Positions 1 to 47,225 of a stretch of DNA of 56,476 nt are shown here, piece after piece (the first letter of the stretch is position 1; each line of letters begins with the position of its first letter). A program made the position numbers and the translations under genes. The notes under the pieces are model-generated. The model did not search any database. It was not told the DNA's origin and saw nothing but the letters and a program-made list of their open reading frames with translations. This DNA comes from a virus (taxonomy: Duplodnaviria > Caudoviricetes): positions 1 through 56,476 of the IMG/VR virus record IMGVR_UViG_3300037180_000017. One strand, given 5' to 3'.

Positions 1-2964
1 AGTCAGTGTGGTCTGATTACACACACCGCCGCCAGCGCCGATACATTCCCAGCGATCTGTAAATGTTCCGCAAACACTAGTACCAGATAATGCAAATGGT
101 CCCGTAAATGCGCTAACCGAGTTATAGGCGGGTGAAATATCGGCATCAGAACTGTTAGCGACGAAATCACCAGTCGCCATCGTATATTTGAGCGTTTGGA
201 TCGCGGCCTGGAGTTCATTGAGCAGATGTTCTCCAAAATAATCTCCAATCACAGCCTTGCCATAACGACGAACATAAGTTGGAAGATTGCCGTTTTGAGC
301 CGCAAGAAAATCCGCCGGCCCTGTCGTTGGCACACCATTGCGGGCAGTATCTGCCCCAGTTGGCTTGACCCAGCTACTTCCACTCCATTTCCAAATCGTT
401 CCAGTGAGCGGATCGCGGACGATATAAGTCCAGGGCAGTTGATTACCATCACTATCCGGGAACCCGCTACCGACCGTAACACCCACGATAGGTGTAAAGA
501 ATATTGTGTCGTCACTATTACCCGTGATTGTTGTGGTGTGCATTGTACCGCTCGGATCAATCAAAGTAAGAGTCCGACCTTTCCATCGGTTTAGCTGATA
601 AGGTTCCTGGATACGATATTGGAGGCCCGCGGCTGAAATAGTGAGCGGCTCGCTCCATGACACCGTGACCGCGGATGAGTTACTCGATGTGATAAGTCGC
701 TTTTCAATGACGGCGTTAGGATCAGTGAAACCGCTTCCAGAGATAAGTATCTCAACTGTGAACCCGACATAGGGGCCGGAGAACCCCACAAAACGTGCCG
801 CTTCCCAATAACAATGTGATTCAACTGTCTCGCTGCCAGGATAAGAGGAATCGACCTTACTAGAATCTGTAAGGCTCGTCGTACTTCCGCTGGTTGACGT
901 GCCGCTTTCAATCCGCATGGCAGCGCCGCCGAACCACTGAAAGTTAAACCAGTTTTGACTGATATCTCGAAGAAAGAAAGTATCCCCGATGGCGGTTGTT
1001 CCTCCACGAGACTTGTTTTTCTTGAATTGGTTTGCTGGAGAAAGCTGACCTGCAAAGAACCGATCCCAATAAGTTGCAACTGGGTCCACGCCGCTGTTCG
1101 TGCTAAGAAAGCTGTTAAGGCCGGCTTGTGTGGATGGATCGTTCCAATCGTCACCAGAATAACGAGCAAGATCGCCTTCCTGGAAAGAGTTCCACGAATT
1201 AGTTGTGTCTTCAACGGCGTAGCCTTGGGGCTGTGAATAGTCTGTTGTGACTTGTCTGCGATCAATGTAAGCCGTGGAAGCTCCCAGCTTGTAGTATTTA
1301 CCGCATCCAAAGCAAGACTTGAGCATCGAATCCCATTCTTCGGGAGCGCCGGGATCAATAGCGGTGGGCGGCGGTCCTGAAGCCACATCTGGGATGAAAA
1401 CGCCATCGTTGGCGAACATCCGCTTAAACTCTCGCGGCATGAAAGCTGACCACCCAAGAGAAATTATGATTGAACGCCCGTTATCAGGAATCGTTACCGA
1501 GCCACCAGACTGAGAAAAGCTACACTGCTCAGTGTAGAACGTATCTGAAATGTTCGTTCCAGTAAGAATGTATTCACCTGAGCTATAGCTCAAAACACCC
1601 CGTCCCGCGTTGCGGCTACCATCGCTGTGAGTAATGGAGAACCACACTTGCTGGGGGAGGACGTATGGGACAGATGAAAGGGAGACGTTGATCTGATTGT
1701 TCGATCCCCCATCTCCCACACCGACTACGCTTCCGGTCATACCTGTAAAGCTGTTGATCCCCGCTGCATTAAACATGATCGCGGGATTCCAAGTGGGAGG
1801 TGTGATGTTCCCACACGATACCGACGCATCACAATAGCTATCGCTTAGTTGCTCGACAGCCAGTTGCAAGCCCCGAATTGTCTTGAAAATATCAGGTGCG
1901 TAATAAGTGTCGTAGGGAGTTCCGCAAGGGTTGGAAATTGGGTCAAGAAGTTCGGCGTTTGTTCCAGTATTATAATCATTGTCCCAGGCAAGTTCCGGCA
2001 GTAGGCCGCAATCACCCTCGTCGTCAATAACATTGGGAACTCCGACTGTCTGACTCCCCCAAGTTACACCATCGGTATCGTCATTGGTTGGACGATGGCT
2101 TGACCACCCATCACCATGATACCCGCGATACCATTGGCGGGCATAGGATGGACCGCGATTAGGCCAACCACGAGCGTTATGAGTTAGAATGATGTAGTTA
2201 CTGCTGACTTCTGGAAGGATGCTTTGTGTAGCATAGGTGGCAGTCGTTTCGTCATTAGCGGTAATTATGAAGCGTTTGAGAAACCCATCTGTTCCGTAAA
2301 CCAAAATATCTCGTCCAACATGCTCGTTGACGACCCATGACTTATTTGGGTCATGGATGGTTGTGGCGTTTGGATAGGTGGTAGTTGTCATCCCCACTGT
2401 GACAGTGCTGGAAGCGATCACACCTCGCGCCCATTCATAGTCATTAGGCCATTCCAGAATACGATCCGCCGTCCACATGGCGTTATTTTCTTGAGAGATA
2501 ACTCCAAAAAAACGGTCTTCTAAACTGGCGACACTGGGGATAACACCAGCGGTTACAAAATCGCGGATATTATTAAAGGTGAAAACCCCCTCATCCGTCC
2601 AACTATCGATCTGGGTCTTGACTTGTTGCTCATAAGTTCCGTTATCAAAGACAAGATAGTAGGTGAATGAACTGCCAAGCCACCCCTCTTCTGGACAGGG
2701 GGTACAGGTCCACGGGGGGCATACGTTACCGCTGGTGTCATCTGAACCCCCACACCAAGGAAGCGAAGGCATTGACGACGCTACGGTCATGGTTGTTTCA
2801 GTAACTGATCCTGCAACACCTTCAACCCAAGCGTGATTAGGAGGGGGCCAAAAACACTGTCCAGCAGCCTTGGCTCGTTCTGCAATAGCATAATCGAATT
2901 GGCGAAGATTCGGCCAGTATTCGACCAAGCTGCCGGGTGATTCTGGAAGAGCTATCCAGCCCAT
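1..2964 (-). CDS. Large Cys-rich tail/receptor-binding protein, 5' part (988 codons; continues across the origin)
   Basis: Hand translation from ATG 2964 (MGWIALPESPGSLVEYWPNLRQFDYAIAERAK...) is open to base 1 (...GGGVCNQTTLT). It is absent from the ORF track because no stop occurs before the edge. It lies at the distal end of the tail module. Confidence 0.85.
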   Translation of the reverse strand, partial: MGWIALPESPGSLVEYWPNLRQFDYAIAERAKAAGQCFWPPPNHAWVEGVAGSVTETTMTVASSMPSLPWCGGSDDTSGNVCPPWTCTPCPEEGWLGSSFTYYLVFDNGTYEQQVKTQIDSWTDEGVFTFNNIRDFVTAGVIPSVASLEDRFFGVISQENNAMWTADRILEWPNDYEWARGVIASSTVTVGMTTTTYPNATTIHDPNKSWVVNEHVGRDILVYGTDGFLKRFIITANDETTATYATQSILPEVSSNYIILTHNARGWPNRGPSYARQWYRGYHGDGWSSHRPTNDDTDGVTWGSQTVGVPNVIDDEGDCGLLPELAWDNDYNTGTNAELLDPISNPCGTPYDTYYAPDIFKTIRGLQLAVEQLSDSYCDASVSCGNITPPTWNPAIMFNAAGINSFTGMTGSVVGVGDGGSNNQINVSLSSVPYVLPQQVWFSITHSDGSRNAGRGVLSYSSGEYILTGTNISDTFYTEQCSFSQSGGSVTIPDNGRSIIISLGWSAFMPREFKRMFANDGVFIPDVASGPPPTAIDPGAPEEWDSMLKSCFGCGKYYKLGASTAYIDRRQVTTDYSQPQGYAVEDTTNSWNSFQEGDLARYSGDDWNDPSTQAGLNSFLSTNSGVDPVATYWDRFFAGQLSPANQFKKNKSRGGTTAIGDTFFLRDISQNWFNFQWFGGAAMRIESGTSTSGSTTSLTDSSKVDSSYPGSETVESHCYWEAARFVGFSGPYVGFTVEILISGSGFTDPNAVIEKRLITSSNSSAVTVSWSEPLTISAAGLQYRIQEPYQLNRWKGRTLTLIDPSGTMHTTTITGNSDDTIFFTPIVGVTVGSGFPDSDGNQLPWTYIVRDPLTGTIWKWSGSSWVKPTGADTARNGVPTTGPADFLAAQNGNLPTYVRRYGKAVIGDYFGEHLLNELQAAIQTLKYTMATGDFVANSSDADISPAYNSVSAFTGPFALSGTSVCGTFTDRWECIGAGGGVCNQTTLT
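2..127. repeat. Terminal direct repeat, left copy (circular assembly overlap)
   Basis: Bases 2-127 are identical to 56351-56476. Base 1 (A) differs from 56350 (C). Confidence 0.95.
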
Positions 2965-2994
2965 TGAGAGAGGTTTCCAAAAATTCTGGAGGGA

Positions 2995-3612
2995 CTAACT
3001 GTTCGAGTTCATCAGAGGTCCGAGCCGAGCATAGTCCCAGCCACGGACATTTTGAGCCACCATTTGTGGGTTCATGTATTGATACTGACCGTAACCCATG
3101 TCAGTGCAATACATGATGAACTGTGGAGCAAGTAGAGAGGGGTCCGATCCAATGCCGCGAATTGGATAAATCAAAACTGGAGTTCCGACACGTAAAATAT
3201 GTGTGCCATCCATCGCAGGACCGCCAGGCTGACGTTCAGACAAGTTAGTGACGGGAAAAATGACAGTCTGTTGGTTGTATGTCGTACTGCTGCTTGGCGC
3301 TTTAGGTAGATTGAGTAAGTCAACAATCTGATCCCACTTACCCCCCACCAGATAATCAAGCTGGACCCAGTACATTTCGTAATTGGAATCGCTTTCTCCG
3401 TTAGGGCCGGCAGATGTGACCTCTCCAGCTAAACCTTCAGAGATTGGAGTAGGTCTAGGGAGCAAAACGGTACTTCCGTTGGGCATCGTACTGATGCCAC
3501 CACCAAGAACCCCTAGATTTCCGGCACGCCCGATCCCAAGTCCTTCATTGAGATGAGACGCCGAAAACGGATCACCCTGTTTCCACGGAACTGGTTGTCG
3601 AGTTTGTGCCAT
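2995..3612 (-). CDS. Putative minor tail protein
   Basis: 205-aa ORF tightly packed in the tail module. Function inferred from position. Confidence 0.6.
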   Translation of the reverse strand: MAQTRQPVPWKQGDPFSASHLNEGLGIGRAGNLGVLGGGISTMPNGSTVLLPRPTPISEGLAGEVTSAGPNGESDSNYEMYWVQLDYLVGGKWDQIVDLLNLPKAPSSSTTYNQQTVIFPVTNLSERQPGGPAMDGTHILRVGTPVLIYPIRGIGSDPSLLAPQFIMYCTDMGYGQYQYMNPQMVAQNVRGWDYARLGPLMNSNS

Positions 3613-14353: not shown

Positions 14354-16018
14354 TTAAGCTGCCTGTGGCGTCCTAGACCTGCGTTGTTGGGCTTTGCCGG
14401 GTCGAGTTTTAGGATTTCCGTTGCCGTTCGTTGGTCTGCCTCCTTGCGGGTCCGGTTGCTTGTTCGTGTTCAGTTGCTGTTTTTCATCGGCTTTTTCGAC
14501 ACGCTCCGGATCGTACTCGCCGGTGGTCTGAATGTCCATGTTGTTCAGTTCCACTTTCATGTTGATGATCCTGAGCATTTCACGAGCGATAATCGGATCG
14601 TTCATGGCCGCGAGGATCATCGCCTTCATGTAGCCACGTTTATTATCGACGATTGACGGCGGCTGAATGCGAATCTTTCCACGGGCTTCTTCGCCAAAAT
14701 TGAGAACCAGGATCGCATCGACCAATGGTTGGCATTGCCGGGCAAACCCCTGATCTTCAAGTTGTGCAATAGACGCACCGACTTCATTGAGCTCTTCAGT
14801 ATCGGATTTGCCGCCTTGACCACGACCTCCACTTCTGGGAGAACGCAAACTACCTTCAAACATCAAATCTTCCGCGTGCATCATTCTTTTCAGGATGCCT
14901 TCAATAGCCGGTGTTGTGCTGCCGTGGTTGAGCAACGTGGGGGTTACAGCCGCTTTGGTCGCTAATTCCGCAATGATTTTTGCGGTGTTGATGTTACCTT
15001 TGGGATCCGTGGGGATATTCAAACTGGGAAGCCACGCCCCTGGCGACCCATTGGCAAGCGCCCGAATCAAATGTTCACAGACTTTGCGGTACTCCAAAAA
15101 CTCGGGCTTACCATTGCTATCCACTTTCCCGGTCGGGAACGTTCCGCTGGGACTGGTCAAAATCAACTGAATGCCTGTGATCTTGGCCCCTAGTCGCTCA
15201 AGTTGCTGATCGCAGCTAAGCCAATCCCGCCACACTGTCATGCGAAGATTTTCAAGCCAAGAGCGACCATACAAATACCCTGCTTCGGCGTCGTAGGTGT
15301 ACTTCCACGCCCTATATGGCGCTGCTAAGCGAACCACATGCTTATCTGGGTTGAGAATAGCATCCGGAACAAAGTTGATAACACCGCTGAAATTCCCCTT
15401 CTCGTCACGGAGACATTCGGTGATATCCACCAAGAGTGGTTTCATACGGGTAAGCCACGTCATGCTATCTCGAATCTCCCAGATTATTTCTCCAGACTGC
15501 CAGCCAAAATCACGCCCCCTCACAAAGAAGTCATGGAGCAAATCAAAACGAAGAGGGTCCATTTGATCCTGAACTGCGGTTGCCCATTCGTCACTGATTC
15601 CTTTGCCGACCTTTACATATTCCCATCGGTTACAAAGAATATCCGCACAAGAAATAGCACGCACAAGTCGGATGGTTGGATGCTGAAGCATCCAGCGATA
15701 AGTGCGATACGTTCCGGTGTACAAAGCATTGTAACCGGGAAATGCCATCGGGTTGTCCATCGAACCGCCGTTCGAGAACAAAAACGGCATGAATGGGGAC
15801 GAAAGGCCCGGATGAAACATCCCATGTCCGGGGTTTTGTTCACCAGTTGCCTCATCGTGAAGACCCGCATCAGTAGGCTGTCTGGCAAAACGACCTTTAT
15901 CATCCCGATAGGGTGTAGGATAATTGGGAGAATCTTCGCTGCCGCCAATGAAACCCGACATCGGATTGGATACGGCTGCGACCTCAGTTTCCAAAAATTC
16001 TGGAGAACGAGCAATCAT
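14354..16018 (-). CDS. Portal protein (Mu gp29/DUF935-like)
   Basis: Lies between TerL and protease with a TAATG overlap at the TerL stop. Motifs 'GRDFGWQSGEIIW', 'LYGRSWLE', 'PLVDAILVLNFG'. Confidence 0.8.
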   Translation of the reverse strand: MIARSPEFLETEVAAVSNPMSGFIGGSEDSPNYPTPYRDDKGRFARQPTDAGLHDEATGEQNPGHGMFHPGLSSPFMPFLFSNGGSMDNPMAFPGYNALYTGTYRTYRWMLQHPTIRLVRAISCADILCNRWEYVKVGKGISDEWATAVQDQMDPLRFDLLHDFFVRGRDFGWQSGEIIWEIRDSMTWLTRMKPLLVDITECLRDEKGNFSGVINFVPDAILNPDKHVVRLAAPYRAWKYTYDAEAGYLYGRSWLENLRMTVWRDWLSCDQQLERLGAKITGIQLILTSPSGTFPTGKVDSNGKPEFLEYRKVCEHLIRALANGSPGAWLPSLNIPTDPKGNINTAKIIAELATKAAVTPTLLNHGSTTPAIEGILKRMMHAEDLMFEGSLRSPRSGGRGQGGKSDTEELNEVGASIAQLEDQGFARQCQPLVDAILVLNFGEEARGKIRIQPPSIVDNKRGYMKAMILAAMNDPIIAREMLRIINMKVELNNMDIQTTGEYDPERVEKADEKQQLNTNKQPDPQGGRPTNGNGNPKTRPGKAQQRRSRTPQAA

Positions 16019-18435
16019 TACCAAGTTCCTTCAACGGCTGTCGGTGCTTCCGCGGTAAGAGAAATCTGCTGTCCGGCAAGATCGTCAATGTAAGCGATTA
16101 AGTACCGTATGCAATCTGCGCCGTGGTCATTTTTATCTTCTGGTTCTTCCTTGGGGGCTTTACGATCCCCGGTCGCACTCGACTCTTTTACTTTTTTCCA
16201 GATATATCCTTCAAACTCATCCACGGTGCAATACGGCAATCCATTTTCTACTAGTTCGTCATCTCTCTGGACAAGGGCATCTCGCAAAAAGAAAAGTCGT
16301 GGTCGAACCGACCCATCTCCGTGAAGAACCGGACGCAATCGCTCTTTTACAGCTTCGATGCCTTGAAGTTTGTCCTCCTTGTAAGCTGGGAGAGCGATAA
16401 TTCCCTCAGCGTCTAACGTGGCCCGGCCCTCAGCATCGTGGTCAGCAACAAAAGTCTCGATGTCTTCCCCTTCCGATAATTGCTTGATGCCGGGTTCAAC
16501 TAACAGTCTTACTTTGGTATCAGGATCGGTATCCCACACTCCTGACGCATGTTCCGATACGATGCGGTGGCTTTTGTAAATCTCACGGTAGATATAAACC
16601 GTGTTATCATCGCTCTTGTCAATCGCGGCCCAGAGACATACAAAGGGGTTTTGAAACCCGAAGTCGATCCCACCAACTTTGCGCCACTTTTCCCAACCCG
16701 GCGGCATCTTATCTACGATATGCTTTGATCGATCGAAATCGTAAACCGCGCCCTCGGTCGCTGCCCACTTCCCGTCCAGGAGTCTTGCCCGACGAACTCC
16801 TGTAAGAGTATAACTCAGCTTCTTGAGATACTTTTCCCCGGCATCGGTAAACTCATTCAGCCTCATGTCAAATAGCATTGGATTATGCCGATGACGACTG
16901 AGCAGTCTAGTCAATCTGCCTTTGGAGGCAAGAACATTAAGCCAGTGGTTCGGCGATCCCGGATTGCAGTCCATGATAATCTGCTGGAAAGGAATCACAT
17001 TATTGCGCAGCCGAGTCACCAGTAATTCAAAATCGTTGGTGGTGATCTCAGTGGCTTCAAACACACCAATCACATCAAACTCGGTGGACATGATCCGGGC
17101 CGGTTCGTCTAGCCCGCTTATCACAATTTCCGATCCTTTAGGAAGGGTGTAACTGCCTCGTATGCGCCGTGTCGGGCCGTCTCGTACCGGGCTTTTAGTC
17201 GGCAGCACTTTACTCTCAAAAGTCACCAAGACCGATTCTGTCATGGATACCCGCGTTTTGCGGCATAGCAACGCTCTTGCACCATGATAGGTATTCATTA
17301 GATGAAAAATGCGCTCCAGCACGCCCCTGGTTTTCCCGGTGTTGTGGTTCCAAAACCCCTCTGCCAAGTAATGCCCAGCACCTGGAACATGCAGATCGAA
17401 ATAAAAATCTCGCCGAACAAATTCAATCCTTGACACCGTTCCCCACCGGACCTTAGAATGAGTGAATGAAAACTCAACGTGATCTTGTCTTTGACGCTTA
17501 CCGTCAGTGTCTTCATCCGAACTTAGTGGCTGAACGATTGAGTCTGTCATTATACGTTGTAAATCGCTGCCTCCGCGCTCTTGGGATTCCGGCCAATCAT
17601 GGTCGGGTTGGAGTCTGCCACCTTCATTTTCAAAAACTTCGACAGCTAGTTGTTGAAGAACGGTCACTTTCTGATATCGCTCATCAACTTGGAACGAATA
17701 CAAAAACTGTGAAACGCTTCCTTCATACCGCTCAGATTCCGTTTCATCGTTTTGTTCAATCGGGTCAAAATAATCCGTCTTGGAAAGGCGGTCGAATGAT
17801 TGATAAAAACGGTTATGTTCTGATCTGGATTCCGCAACACCCTTTTGCAAATCGACACGGCTACATTCGAGAACATCGGCTAGTAATGGAAAAACACCTT
17901 GGTCGATATCTCGGTCGCCATGAAGTTGTGCATCATAAGAACGGCAAAAAGCAAGATAATCGGCTAAGGAACCTTGAACTTTTCGGATCGAACGCAAATC
18001 ATCTTGCTGCAACTTTGAAGGGCAAAGTCCCAAACTGGACACCGGACGGCAAGCGTCGAATCTTAGCAAGTCATCTCCAACACAAATTGCGTCAAGCCGA
18101 CACCATCCGTTCCGCGTAAGAAACTTATGATGATCTGTGACCGTGATCTCACGGCCATCATCCAGAACCACACGAAATAAATCGGCAACTCCTTTTAAGA
18201 ACGGAACTGTGGCTTGTCGTGGACCATAGAGTGTCATTACCACGGGGGCAAAACCGCACTTCCATAAAGTCTCGATCTGGGTATGACATCCCTTATTGGC
18301 AAGATAAATTCGTGTCTCACCAGCCACACATCCTGCCGGCCCTTCTACAAGCACAGCATCGTCGTGACACTTAAAAAGGTCATAGATCGCACCATAAGGC
18401 TTATAGGGCCGCTGGCCCTCACTAGGTAAGCTCAC
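16018..18435 (-). CDS. terL: Terminase large subunit containing a 330-aa intein (spliced product ~475 aa)
   Basis: Walker A GPAG|TGKT split by the intein; Walker B 'VIGVFEATE', 'MDCNP', nuclease 'GGIDFGF' and 'DHGADCIRY'. Confidence 0.95.
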   Translation of the reverse strand: MSLPSEGQRPYKPYGAIYDLFKCHDDAVLVEGPAGCVAGETRIYLANKGCHTQIETLWKCGFAPVVMTLYGPRQATVPFLKGVADLFRVVLDDGREITVTDHHKFLTRNGWCRLDAICVGDDLLRFDACRPVSSLGLCPSKLQQDDLRSIRKVQGSLADYLAFCRSYDAQLHGDRDIDQGVFPLLADVLECSRVDLQKGVAESRSEHNRFYQSFDRLSKTDYFDPIEQNDETESERYEGSVSQFLYSFQVDERYQKVTVLQQLAVEVFENEGGRLQPDHDWPESQERGGSDLQRIMTDSIVQPLSSDEDTDGKRQRQDHVEFSFTHSKVRWGTVSRIEFVRRDFYFDLHVPGAGHYLAEGFWNHNTGKTRGVLERIFHLMNTYHGARALLCRKTRVSMTESVLVTFESKVLPTKSPVRDGPTRRIRGSYTLPKGSEIVISGLDEPARIMSTEFDVIGVFEATEITTNDFELLVTRLRNNVIPFQQIIMDCNPGSPNHWLNVLASKGRLTRLLSRHRHNPMLFDMRLNEFTDAGEKYLKKLSYTLTGVRRARLLDGKWAATEGAVYDFDRSKHIVDKMPPGWEKWRKVGGIDFGFQNPFVCLWAAIDKSDDNTVYIYREIYKSHRIVSEHASGVWDTDPDTKVRLLVEPGIKQLSEGEDIETFVADHDAEGRATLDAEGIIALPAYKEDKLQGIEAVKERLRPVLHGDGSVRPRLFFLRDALVQRDDELVENGLPYCTVDEFEGYIWKKVKESSATGDRKAPKEEPEDKNDHGADCIRYLIAYIDDLAGQQISLTAEAPTAVEGTW
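17430..17459 (+). promoter_or_regulatory. sigma70-type promoter for the antisense HNH (leaderless)
   Basis: TTGACA (17430-35), N18, TAGAAT (17454-59), then 6 nt to ATG 17466. Confidence 0.7.
17466..18119 (+). CDS. HNH homing endonuclease nested antisense within the intein
   Basis: Two N-terminal HTH-like segments, 'GQNNPSWKGG', and HNH core 'GYIREHRLVMEKHLGRYL...VVHHKNGKKQDNRLRNLEL'. Confidence 0.9.
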   Translation: MKTQRDLVFDAYRQCLHPNLVAERLSLSLYVVNRCLRALGIPANHGRVGVCHLHFQKLRQLVVEERSLSDIAHQLGTNTKTVKRFLHTAQIPFHRFVQSGQNNPSWKGGRMIDKNGYVLIWIPQHPFANRHGYIREHRLVMEKHLGRYLGRHEVVHHKNGKKQDNRLRNLELFGSNANHLAATLKGKVPNWTPDGKRRILASHLQHKLRQADTIRSA

Positions 18436-18895
18436 GGCTCTTCACCTTTTTGGATTCGATGAGTGGCTCTTCTGGAAGATCAATATAGACTTTAATGGCG
18501 TCTTCGCTCATTATCACACGATCTGGAGTCTTACCTTCCTCACGCTCAATAAACTCCCTTGTATGCTGGAAGTTAGCACCTTCCATTTGCTGCACGAACG
18601 CCTCAGCAACGTCATCAAACCTGGTATTCTGGGTGAGTGTGCCGCTCTCAGGGTCAACTTTCAAACTCCGTTGTCGAAGAATCTCCCGGATTCTTGACAT
18701 TAAAGTTTTACCCTTCTGAGCGTTATCCGATCCCCGTACTTCACCCGGCTTAATCATGTTCTTCCGCATCGCTTCGGGAAGATTCGGAAACACGATCTCG
18801 GCAGAAACTTTGGGCCGCTTGAGTTTAGGGACCATGCGGCGCTGCTCGGTTCGCCGTTTAATCGCTGTGTTGATGATTGCGGTCTTGACGGTCAT
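18422..18895 (-). CDS. Terminase small subunit (putative)
   Basis: Directly upstream of TerL. 'IKPGEVRG..KGK' and 'EFIEREEGK' resemble DUF5681-type TerS. Likely start ATG 18895. Confidence 0.65.
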   Translation of the reverse strand: MTVKTAIINTAIKRRTEQRRMVPKLKRPKVSAEIVFPNLPEAMRKNMIKPGEVRGSDNAQKGKTLMSRIREILRQRSLKVDPESGTLTQNTRFDDVAEAFVQQMEGANFQHTREFIEREEGKTPDRVIMSEDAIKVYIDLPEEPLIESKKVKSRELT

Positions 18896-30922: not shown

Positions 30923-30970
30923 AGTATAATCTAAGTGGGTGGACGTGTCAATGGGCTAGGTAGGAAATTT
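30923..30970 (-). promoter_or_regulatory. Leftward sigma70-type promoter
   Basis: AAATTT-N13-TTGACA-N17-TATACT, 8 nt before ATG 30914. Confidence 0.8.
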
Positions 30971-46005: not shown

Positions 46006-46052
46006 AATTTAAGACCTTCACCCTTGACAGAGCTTCTGGGCTGTGATATATT
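46005..46052 (+). promoter_or_regulatory. Promoter of recombination operon
   Basis: AAATTT-N13-TTGACA(46024)-N17-TATATT. Confidence 0.7.
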
Positions 46053-46085: not shown

Positions 46086-47225
46086 ATGGCCATTGACCTT
46101 CAAAAAGCACTTCGTCTTGACATCCCTCGTAAACGTTTCACGGAGAAAACCGGATATCCCAAGTTCCGTGATTCTGGAAAAGTAGGGGTGTGGAATTTAT
46201 TCCGCGACGGAGTAACTTCCAGCTTTCTTGACCTGTGGATGACGTGCGAAGAGCAGGCTCGACTCGCCTATGTGGAGGGCTGGACCGGGCGGCTGACTCC
46301 GATGGGGATTGCATTTGGATCATGCGTGCATGATTGTCTTTATCGAGGTTATAGCCGCATCATCAAAACGCCGTCGCTCTTGGCCACGTTCCAAACTAAC
46401 TGCGCCGGGCTGGTTAAAGAATGTGAAGTGGCTTGGAAAGCCGAAAGCCCTGACGCCCCTACCGAACAAGTTCAAATCCAAGAACTGGTGTATGGTTATG
46501 CGGAGTGTGTATTGCCGGCTTATTTTCGGCGCTGGGACGGTGATTTCACCGGCAAGTATAGCTTCATGGAGAATCCGTCAATTCATCCCAAGTCGTTTGT
46601 GTCTCTAGAAGAACAATTTAGCGTTCCTTACGTTTATCCGGACGGCGTCATAGTCCCTCTTTGTGGTCAGCGGGATATGGTGTTTACGACCAAGACCGAT
46701 AAAGAGATGATCCAAGACACCAAATGTCTCAGCATCATCAACGATAAAGAGATCATGGACCTCTTCCCGACTGATCTTCAGCAGAACATTTACATGCTGG
46801 CACGAGCTATTGAGACGGGGAAAATGCCCGAGGGATCAGTGAAGAACATTTTGCGTCGTCCAGGCCATCGGCGCAGCAAGAAAGGCGGCATCGAGGAGCC
46901 ACTGCCTCAGTTCTTTGCCCGCATCAAGCAGAGTGTGGACGATGTGAACCAGTGGGATATGAAGGGTGAGGAAACGACTGGATGGTTCGTGCGGTTTAAC
47001 ATGCTGGTGACACCAGACGAAGTGCTGCATTGGAAAGCTACTCGGCTCGATCCGATCATGGACGACCTGCGGATGTGGGCCACCGGCAAGCGGCCACACT
47101 ATCCCAGAGATCGCCATGCGGTGACAAAATACGGTCGGTGCGGCATGTACGGCCCGCTGATTAAGAATGATTTCACGCATGTATATCAACGGTCTAGTCC
47201 GTTCCCGGAACTGGAAGTAGTTTAA
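46086..47225 (+). CDS. PD-(D/E)XK (RecB-like) exonuclease
   Basis: 'FGSCVHDCL', 'LEEQF', 'GQRDMV', 'IQDTK', 'QQNIY'. Confidence 0.85.
   Translation: MAIDLQKALRLDIPRKRFTEKTGYPKFRDSGKVGVWNLFRDGVTSSFLDLWMTCEEQARLAYVEGWTGRLTPMGIAFGSCVHDCLYRGYSRIIKTPSLLATFQTNCAGLVKECEVAWKAESPDAPTEQVQIQELVYGYAECVLPAYFRRWDGDFTGKYSFMENPSIHPKSFVSLEEQFSVPYVYPDGVIVPLCGQRDMVFTTKTDKEMIQDTKCLSIINDKEIMDLFPTDLQQNIYMLARAIETGKMPEGSVKNILRRPGHRRSKKGGIEEPLPQFFARIKQSVDDVNQWDMKGEETTGWFVRFNMLVTPDEVLHWKATRLDPIMDDLRMWATGKRPHYPRDRHAVTKYGRCGMYGPLIKNDFTHVYQRSSPFPELEVV

Follow-up and report, generated by a model that had tools for sequence, protein, structure and literature searches.

How can one stretch of phage DNA encode a protein-splicing element on one strand and a complete endonuclease on the other? 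The question arises in IMGVR_UViG_3300037180_000017, an IMG/VR virus record assigned to the Caudoviricetes, which we analysed over its full length of 56,476 bp (hereafter the window; the stretch is a whole phage contig). Its gene for the large terminase subunit (TerL), on the minus strand, is interrupted within the Walker A motif by an intein, and the plus strand of the same DNA holds an open reading frame (ORF) for an HNH endonuclease-like protein. We consider it probable that the two make up one composite mobile element, in which a spliced minus-strand TerL intein is combined with a plus-strand HNH homing gene. Judged from sequence, such a two-strand mechanism is well supported by comparative evidence: both frames are open, the arrangement recurs at other loci, selection is partitioned between the strands, the two products differ in their predicted folds, and relatives are polymorphic for the presence or absence of the element. 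The features of the locus are listed here by their position in the window, with protein lengths in amino acids (aa) and model confidence as pLDDT (predicted local distance difference test).

16018..18435, minus strand: TerL precursor ORF, 805 aa with a GTG start (N-extein of 35 aa, intein of 330 aa and C-extein of 440 aa, then the stop codon).
17341..18330, minus strand: class-1 intein, 330 aa (TerL residues 36-365), with GPAG/C...HN/TGKT junctions.
18055..18330, minus strand: N-terminal HINT lobe of the intein (residues 1-92), predicted as beta strands with pLDDT 96-98 over residues 1-90.
17473..18054, minus strand: central sense-frame linker (residues 93-286), antisense to the HNH gene, stop-free and otherwise unconstrained.
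17341..17472, minus strand: C-terminal HINT lobe (residues 287-330), ending in HN, with pLDDT 92-99.
17466..18119, plus strand: HNH homing-endonuclease-like gene, 217 aa from an ATG, with two N-terminal helix-turn-helix (HTH) units, an HNH_3 core and a C-terminal helix.
17775..18059, plus strand: conserved HNH catalytic core up to the LKGKVPNWT motif, about residues 104-198 (alignments A1 and A2).
17430..17459, plus strand: sigma-70-type promoter-like site, TTGACA-18-TAGAAT (11/12 consensus positions), inside intein C-lobe codons.
18331..18435, minus strand: N-extein, ending in GPAG, the first half of Walker A.
16018..17340, minus strand: C-extein, starting with TGKT, the second half of Walker A, then the ATPase and nuclease domains of the terminase.

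A preliminary description of this DNA had placed a 330-aa intein across the Walker A motif of TerL, and every one of its coordinates held, on the evidence of an intein family model, of invariant residues and of intein-less relatives. The host protein was recognized by Pfam Terminase_3 both in the full ORF (38.2 bits against a cut-off of 23.2) and in the C-extein alone (39.2 bits), and comparison with PHROGs returned phrog_2 (1.2e-27). Three intein-less TerL relatives (L001-L003, 47-49% identical) read GPAGTGKT unbroken, which fixes the insertion site, and joining GPAG to TGKT across the splice junction rebuilds the contiguous motif of these relatives. The NCBIfam model intein_Nterm matched TerL residues 36-107 above its cut-off (29.2 versus 24.5). 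The catalytic set of the window intein comprises Cys1, the block B TxxH motif (His68; the motif reads T-D-H-H), the penultimate His329, Asn330 and a Thr at position +1. Across the aligned inteins of the family, C1, H68, Y321 and N330 are invariant (86/86) and H329 is kept in at least 90%, while the +1 residue of the 108 elements collected below is Ser in 72, Thr in 30 and Cys in 6. From these conserved catalytic residues, and from a site inside the essential Walker A, we infer that the TerL intein is spliced.

The intein's sequence similarity and its predicted structure are both confined to its two ends. A profile built from 86 family members matched 51 solved intein chains, best of all the DnaB mini-intein 4o1r (E 1.1e-25), and these matches covered the first ~100 and last ~40 profile positions, with none at positions ~102-266. 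AlphaFold2 modelled beta-rich lobes at residues 1-92 and 287-330 with pLDDT 92-99, and gave residues ~95-286 a pLDDT of 35-54 with zero secondary structure. The sense frame of the intein, scanned with Pfam, yielded zero endonuclease families. The centre had previously been called featureless, and it remains so by both measures. An endonuclease encoded in frame within the intein, which we considered as a candidate, was rejected for the lack of a family match or predicted structure in the sense frame.

The plus-strand ORF sits opposite intein residues 71-289 and, as had been noticed earlier, its 3' end reaches into the N-terminal splicing domain, the HNH tail overlapping the intein N lobe by about 20 codons. 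Its reading as a 217-aa protein of HTH and HNH units was upheld: Pfam HNH_3 (PF13392) matched residues 137-178 (34.7 bits against a cut-off of 24.8), comparison with PHROGs gave phrog_10730, 'HNH endonuclease' (2.7e-30), and HTH models gave weak Pfam matches. A scan of both strands with family models thus placed intein_Nterm on the minus strand and HNH_3 on the plus strand, each above its cut-off. In a large protein collection the window HNH protein has 3150 cluster relatives at E <=1e-10. They go under the names 'hypothetical', 'HNH endonuclease', 'CsgD family regulator' and 'IS30 transposase', none of which points to an intein.

Eleven residues are invariant in 86/86 aligned HNH proteins (W106, Y117, R147, L149, E153, V154, V155, H157, N165, N169 and H179), and all 11 are kept in the window; by analogy, H157, N165, N169 and H179 would have catalytic roles. 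An AlphaFold2 model of the protein from the 86-sequence alignment reached a mean pLDDT of 94.7 with no segment below 50, and consists of two helical HTH units at the N-terminus, then a beta-beta-alpha core, and lastly a long helix at the C-terminus. The core is formed by strands 154-157 and 170-173 followed by a helix at 176-184, all at a pLDDT of about 98. The nearest solved nuclease was 1u3e, entered as HNH homing endonuclease I-HmuI; this enzyme comes from a group I intron of Bacillus phage SPO1. In a Foldseek comparison of the model with the PDB, 1u3e_M ranked third (probability 0.97, 27% identity over 92 columns), and this multi-domain model had zero matches at E <=0.001. We also observed that residues 1-55 of the window protein (17466-17630) form an additional N-terminal HTH-like unit, which resembles a duplication of the HTH that follows it and which the other six members of alignment A1 are without.

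Does the arrangement recur? In a first HNH search of viral contigs, eight of eight loci carried the HNH gene antisense inside a long ORF with an intein at a P-loop, and all 8 share the relative frame of the window. An HNH profile (alignment A1) had 476, 253 and 501 confirmed relatives in three collections, and 80 loci per collection were taken. A locus was scored as embedded when an antisense ORF in the window's relative frame, free of stops over at least 250 aa, spanned the HNH gene. Embedded loci made up 46/80 of the metagenome, 16/80 of the genome and 79/80 of the viral set. The same arrangement in the same relative frame was found in 150 of the 249 loci fetched by HNH similarity, and clean C1...HN+[S/T/C] intein ends in 118 loci yielded at least 108 distinct intein DNAs. 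Antisense HNH ORFs in other phage inteins, for which the preliminary description had suggested a search, were thus recovered.

The absence of stops within the embedded set follows from how that set was constructed, and the telling figures are the fraction embedded and the controls. When the window HNH gene was subjected to within-gene synonymous permutation, the TerL frame acquired a mean of 7.2 stops (0/200 stop-free); resampling with extein codon usage gave a mean of 5.4 stops (3/200 stop-free). For a single locus, the chance of an open TerL frame is therefore roughly 1e-3 to 1e-2, which is suggestive, and an earlier figure computed as (61/64)^218 proved too crude. Family-wide, synonymous permutation leads to an expectation of ~6.7 TerL-frame stops per element. 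Free-standing relatives (n = 98) had 4.65 stops per 100 codons in the TerL-type frame, with 2/98 stop-free, and the mini-inteins described below, read in the same antisense frame, had 3-8 stops in 132 codons (15/15). The recurrence across loci is decisive and settles that the arrangement did not originate by chance.

Some individual loci depart from this pattern. No in-frame or same-strand form of the HNH gene was seen among the 249 loci, with L094, L153, L171 and L128 left aside: these are weak or GC-rich loci, with HNH open frames of at least 350 aa in L094, L153 and L171 and a same-strand long ORF in L128. A search for split-intein arrangements among the 99 loci without an antisense ORF gave intein-lobe matches in two, L198 and L149. 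In L198, an ORF with an intein N lobe (480-2876, minus) stops where the 3' end of the HNH gene starts (2-490, plus); the contig ends within this locus, which could represent a split-intein ('fractured gene') form or carry a plain stop mutation. In L149, a 552-aa antisense ORF (1730-3385, minus) lies over a distant HNH in a different relative frame with a weak intein C-lobe match (E 4.4e-4); the locus may represent an antisense arrangement of independent origin or an artefact of its GC-richness. In L020, an intact HNH gene (2402-2998, plus) lies under a stop-free 246-aa antisense ORF (2328-3068, minus) in the same relative frame, and intein lobes were not detectable in it. The start of that antisense ORF (…RYKPLRVSEFVGLEKPKK…) is, to our eye, reminiscent of the N-terminus of a clamp-loader/AAA+ protein, and the locus may be the leftover of an element in another ATPase.

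We then compared how the two strands are constrained. In the shared relative frame, position 3 of an HNH codon pairs with position 2 of an intein codon, and HNH position 2 with intein position 3. Variability at HNH codon positions 1/2/3 was 0.464/0.397/0.663 (161 well-filled columns, 108 sequences), which is the normal coding signature in the HNH frame and an inverted one in the intein frame. Amino-acid identity in the centre was 42.8% in the HNH frame versus 19.8% in the intein frame (144 adjacent columns). Over the same bases, dN/dS was 0.163 in the HNH frame and 1.31 in the intein frame (79 close pairs of 75-99.5% nucleotide identity, which are not independent), and the differences within close pairs fell at HNH codon positions 1/2/3 in numbers of 357/291/1207. 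A per-frame comparison had been proposed in the preliminary description; it revealed purifying selection in the HNH frame, which homologues keep open. The competing idea that the sense-frame insert is a conserved folded domain did not survive, given its low identity and lack of predicted structure. Followed along the TerL frame, the most variable codon position is the third for intein residues 1-90 and the second from residue 91 onward. Constraint thus changes strand sharply at the end of the predicted N lobe (intein residue ~91), and in the ~20 codons in which the HNH tail overlaps the intein N lobe it is the intein frame that prevails.

The elements are also specific in where they insert. 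Among the 108, the site is GxxG/[S/T/C]GK[S/T], the window's type, in 83 and GxxxxGK/[S/T/C] in 20, with 5 elsewhere. Pfam matches of the C-exteins (n = 78) were to Terminase_6N (30), Terminase_3 (19), Helicase_C (2), SNF2 (2) and AAA, AAA_34 and ResIII (1 each). Mapped onto a tree built with FastTree from the 108 HNH proteins, the site label changes only 2 times, compared with a minimum of 15 and a mean of 18.6 for shuffled labels; the HNH tree follows the exact insertion site, and co-inheritance contributes to this too.

The strongest evidence of mobility came from alleles of one site in a set selected by its extein: L211 carries an HNH-intein, and the 80 viral loci of the set match its C-extein at 93-100% identity. 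The states of the GGNR/SGKT site in these loci were the following.

47/80 loci: intein-less allele.
15/80 loci: 132-aa mini-intein allele.
8/80 loci: 314-aa HNH-intein allele.
4/80 loci: 293-aa HNH-intein allele.
Remaining loci: 3 partial, 2 in which the search motif was missing and 1 truncated at the contig end.

In each complete HNH-intein of this set (12/12) the HNH frame is open over 229-240 codons. The 293-aa and 314-aa types are ~44% identical in their HNH proteins and ~35% in their lobes, and their exteins are at least 94% identical; because such divergent elements occupy near-identical exteins, we regard the two as independent arrivals. Compared with the 293-aa type, the mini-intein is 50.5% identical in the N lobe and 65.6% in the C lobe, and its entire centre is missing. 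The preliminary description had proposed that a free-standing HNH gene invaded a mini-intein. Free-standing HNH relatives and mini-inteins at the same site both exist and fit such an invasion; the order of events that it supposed is not fixed by them, because later deletion of the HNH gene would give the same picture.

Three further observations concern these sites. The +1 Ser codon in the L211-like loci (L252-L331) was TCA in 12/12 HNH-inteins; the 47 empty alleles had AGT (26), TCT (8), TCA (7), TCC (5) or TCG (1), and the mini-intein alleles TCA (7), AGC (6) or AGT (2). This bias could mean a co-conversion tract, a target-site preference or immunity to the nuclease. Elements were also observed in non-terminase P-loop proteins (for example L101, L104, L092 and L223, in ORFs of up to 1550 aa), placements that parallel the extein switching via nucleotide-binding sites proposed in passages of Gosselin et al. 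(bioRxiv 10.1101/2025.01.02.630785). Finally, L096, L099 and L100 carry an antisense HNH-intein at GxxxxGK/[S/T] on contigs of metagenome-assembled genomes (MAGs) binned as Methanobacteriota, Altiarchaeales and Nanoarchaeota, which suggests that the element also circulates in archaeal viruses, the binning of short contigs being uncertain.

Two cultured-phage records hold the same arrangement in the same relative frame, those of Pectobacterium phage Ymer (OP748252.2; L332) and Pseudoalteromonas phage PHS3 (KX912252.1; L333). In Ymer, the annotation has TerL with its intein as a 754-aa 'hypothetical protein' and lacks the HNH gene; seven Ymer-related records gave equivalent HNH matches, and the word 'intein' is absent from the portions of the Ymer genus paper covered here. 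In PHS3, the continuous 708-aa ORF for TerL with intein (locus 1245-3368, minus) is unannotated, and GenBank gives as TerL the C-extein only (locus 1242-2417), with the HNH gene called on the other strand. Public annotation thus misses the element, Ymer being left without an HNH gene and the TerL of PHS3 shortened to fit one. The HNH relative in Halobacterium phage phiH is free-standing.

Together, these observations point to the following cycle. Translation of terL on the minus strand would run straight through the 330-aa class-1 intein in the Walker A P-loop. The HINT lobes (1-92 and 287-330) would fold together with the 190-aa stretch between them left as an unstructured loop, and protein splicing would excise the whole insert, restoring GPAG-TGKT and with it a working terminase. 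The DNA of the loop would at the same time be a real gene on the plus strand, for a 217-aa HNH_3 endonuclease of I-HmuI type that carries two DNA-binding HTH units; a sigma-70-type promoter of its own, within the intein C-lobe codons, would most likely drive its transcription. The nuclease would most likely nick or cut the intein-less terL of co-infecting relatives near the P-loop codons, and repair off the occupied allele would copy intein and HNH gene jointly, which amounts to homing.

Because all neighbouring genes lie on the minus strand, the HNH gene would need a promoter of its own. We scanned for consensus matches only, with sites placed relative to candidate ATGs. The -10 hexamer of the window site ends 6 nucleotides (nt) before the HNH ATG, so its mRNA would be leaderless or have a very short leader. 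Over the whole genome and both strands there are 3 sites of at least 11/12, compared with a mean of 0.47 in shuffled sequence. In the family, a site of at least 10/12 lies upstream of the HNH start in 21/108 elements versus 72/6812 equal-sized control windows (binomial p 1.6e-20, with elements that are not independent). PHS3 has an 11/12 site about 30 nt upstream of its HNH ATG. A search of sequencing runs for RNA data over 17000-18600 gave none, which speaks neither for nor against expression.

Several points weigh against a composite mobile element at this locus. We infer splicing, transcription and translation of the HNH gene and the cleavage site for all members, and likewise the homing of the window copy. 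Pfam Intein_splicing scored 31.8 bits, under its cut-off of 35.8, so the Hint domain that had been predicted for the minus strand was borne out by NCBIfam intein_Nterm and not by Pfam. The resemblance to I-HmuI is weak by score, both in the profile comparison (E 1.6e-3) and in Foldseek (E 0.094, TM 0.27-0.33). A promoter-like site of at least 10/12 was not found upstream of the HNH gene in 87/108 elements, and such a site was not found on the HNH strand of cultured phage Ymer. The nearest intein-less alleles found for the window TerL are those only 47-49% identical and the nearest relative of its HNH protein is 62% identical; since neither a close empty allele nor a close sister element was found, the mobility of the window copy is read from its family. 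Intact HNH frames are over-represented because the loci were gathered by HNH similarity, and phylogenetic dependence among the close pairs, among the 108 elements and among the tree labels makes the p-values optimistic. In addition, the HNH frame of L051 (about 190-642, plus) has an internal stop (…GGRILR*GKD…) opposite an open TerL/intein frame, and is likely the sign of a nuclease in decay within an intein that can still splice, or else of a sequencing error.

Four other explanations of the locus have to be weighed with these points in mind. That the plus ORF is simply a chance open frame antisense to a coding region draws on the fact that long antisense ORFs do arise by chance, and 3/200 of the resamples with extein codon usage were stop-free. 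Yet this frame encodes a protein that matches HNH_3 above cut-off and phrog_10730 at 2.7e-30, has 3150 cluster relatives, is under purifying selection and folds with high confidence in prediction; we rejected the explanation on family matches, resampling, fold and dN/dS, and what probability it retains is negligible. Alternatively, the central sense peptide could have a function of its own, as a flexible tether or a regulator of splicing, with selection on both strands. Its frame is open in every element, intein length is held to 269-382 aa across the family, and in the window the HNH tail shares about 20 codons with the intein N lobe. An open frame needs no more than selection against stops, however, and the same centre has 19.8% identity and a dN/dS of 1.3 in the intein frame with the second codon position most variable, no predicted structure and no family match, while mini-inteins that lack it persist in the same gene; a function of this kind seems to us very improbable.

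The HNH protein could also be functional in something other than homing, for instance as a packaging cofactor of the terminase, like the HNH proteins encoded beside terminase genes in HK97-like phages, or as a nuclease against competitors or the host, the intein being its safe harbour. HNH genes are often found beside terminase genes, according to passages of PMC3592412; 49/78 exteins match a terminase N-terminal family; and purifying selection shows that there is a function and not which one. But the element is absent from 47/80 L211-like TerL alleles that are near-identical, and is therefore dispensable for packaging; it also occupies SNF2/helicase and AAA exteins, its lineages track the exact insertion site, its HNH_3 family, which has HTH units, is nearest to the intron homing enzyme I-HmuI, and empty, mini and full alleles occur together in the pattern of a homing cycle. 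We hold a non-homing role to be unlikely on these grounds. It is quite unlikely, too, that the HNH gene of the window is a silent or inactive relic in a fixed, vertically inherited element, its frame open for no other reason than that decay has not yet hit it. Such a history would agree with the failure to find a close intein-less allele or a close copy of the element, with the intein protein having no match at 1e-5 in 50,697 phage records (the cultured relatives were reached via the HNH protein), and with the decay seen elsewhere in the family, in L051 and the mini-inteins. It agrees less well with a full 217-codon open frame, with 11/11 invariant residues present, with a confident model (mean pLDDT 94.7, no segment <50), and with a near-consensus promoter-like site directly before the ATG.

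The setting of the gene in the phage genome is simple. Structural genes occupy the minus strand from 1 to 30.5 kb and replication genes the plus strand from 31 to 55 kb, and the minus-strand genes near terL include a head maturation protease. GC content is 46.2% in the intein region and 45.6% in the HNH ORF, compared with 49.8% in the TerL exteins and 50.2% in the whole genome, and the lower value for 17341-18330 fits a foreign origin. A search for a group I intron or other structured RNA at 16800-18800 gave zero Rfam matches at E values up to 1. The other two promoter-like sites of at least 11/12 lie at 30951 (minus), heading the structural block, and at 46024 (plus), 62 nt before the ORF 46086-47225; both are plausible host RNA polymerase promoters of the phage.

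The arrangement is abundant and extends beyond a few actinophages or one cyanobacterial gene, and the family of antisense HNH-inteins is apparently large and of single origin. More tentatively, it may be the commonest association of HNH nucleases with inteins in phages, a large single-origin family of P-loop sites with a promoter in the C lobe, an adaptive reversal of the nuclease gene and antisense modulation of terL; we regard this wider picture as possible, and would not yet call it probable. Were it true, the reversal would free the nuclease from the late timing of terL, allowing cutting and homing during phage genome replication, and antisense transcription through terL might tune terminase expression. 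This would make the element a selfish operon on two strands, in which each base is constrained by only one strand, with a switch at intein residue ~91. The locus also offers a natural case of strict strand-wise partition of constraint over an antisense overlap of about 200 codons, which can serve studies of overlapping genes as well as gene callers. The HINT domain may tolerate a 190-aa unstructured loop, a point of interest to intein engineering. The finding of empty alleles, mini-inteins and two HNH-intein alleles at one site of a near-identical gene population gives unusually clean support to an evolution of inteins in which splicing came first and the nuclease later. Since cultured phages carry the element, its splicing, expression timing and homing are directly testable.

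How does this element compare with known systems? The preliminary description had taken the architecture for an undescribed class, a claim that has to be lowered because antisense LAGLIDADG and VSR-like endonucleases of inteins are in print. As given in the parts of the preprint cited here, Gosselin, Arsenault and Gogarten (bioRxiv 10.1101/2025.01.02.630785) found non-canonical nucleases in 63/784 actinophage inteins and distinguished four types, namely in-frame HNH, antisense LAGLIDADG, antisense VSR-like and frame-3 endonuclease VII-like. Many of these inteins are in TerL, and free-standing endonuclease genes invading inteins are proposed as their origin; earlier antisense LAGLIDADG cases (Gorbalenya 1998; Gogarten 2002) are cited there. 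Like those inteins, the ones described here are contiguous, presumably splicing and often in TerL, and their endonuclease ORF lies between the splicing blocks on the other strand; purifying selection on that ORF and a relaxed intein frame are shared as well, as are a proposed origin by invasion and evidence that intein and endonuclease move jointly. What sets the window element apart from the reported antisense sets is its nuclease, which is of the HNH_3 family with HTH units and neither LAGLIDADG nor VSR-like; HNH in the passages cited occurs in frame only. Other differences are the hosts (uncultured phages of many environments and Pectobacterium and Pseudoalteromonas phages here, actinophages there) and the at least 108 distinct elements assembled here, with a P-loop target and two sites three residues apart. 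Within the literature covered, to which the supplementary tables of that preprint do not belong, we found no HNH reported on the antisense strand of an intein. HNH_3 would thus be a fourth nuclease family among inteins with an off-frame or antisense homing enzyme.

The cyanobacterial dnaX intein (Gorbalenya 1998, as cited) is a close parallel in its evolution. Phillips, DeSimone and Gogarten (bioRxiv 10.64898/2026.09.14.751524), in the portions cited here, report a frame-dependent dN/dS for its off-frame endonuclease, low in that frame and raised in the overlapping intein frame, as in our elements; mini-intein and empty alleles co-exist there too, and a secondary invasion of a mini-intein is proposed. 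Its host gene, unlike ours, is cellular (dnaX) and its nuclease is a LAGLIDADG enzyme, whose frame is called a '+2 ORF' by Phillips et al. and antisense in the cited passages of Gosselin et al. The in-frame HNH inteins (1997, as cited in these works) likewise combine an HNH-type nuclease with an intein, but there the nuclease is part of the intein polypeptide and made only with the host protein, whereas here it is separate and on the other strand. In fractured genes, as described in the cited passages of Dassa et al. 2009 (PMC2677866), a free-standing endonuclease gene likewise lies in an intein-coding region, and inteins are modelled as gaining their nucleases via free-standing genes. The host gene and intein are there divided over two ORFs that are joined by trans-splicing, with GIY-YIG or Vsr-like nucleases, while the intein ORF here is continuous. 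Arsenault et al. 2025 (PMC11855218) describe, in the portion cited, an HNH gene that likewise lies over an open host ORF whose sense product is predicted as a loop. The HNH gene and that ORF share a strand, in different frames, and splicing domains were undetected, so the insert would stay in the host protein.

With respect to the insertion site, the TerL inteins of mycobacteriophages (Kelley et al. 2016, PMC5050341) likewise lie in Walker A, and the passages cited from that paper describe no opposite-strand nuclease. The site called 'classic' there separates the invariant Lys from the nucleophilic Thr and is the GxxxxGK/T of 20/108 elements here, and the window site, GxxG/TGKT, is three residues upstream of it. 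With respect to the nuclease, the solved structure nearest to the HNH core of the window protein is I-HmuI (1u3e), which is intron-borne and not intein-borne; the tandem N-terminal HTH units and the C-terminal LKGKVPNWT helix of the HNH family had no counterpart in the matches found. On the basis of these comparisons, an antisense HNH_3 gene inside an intein appears to be an addition to the antisense-endonuclease inteins already described.

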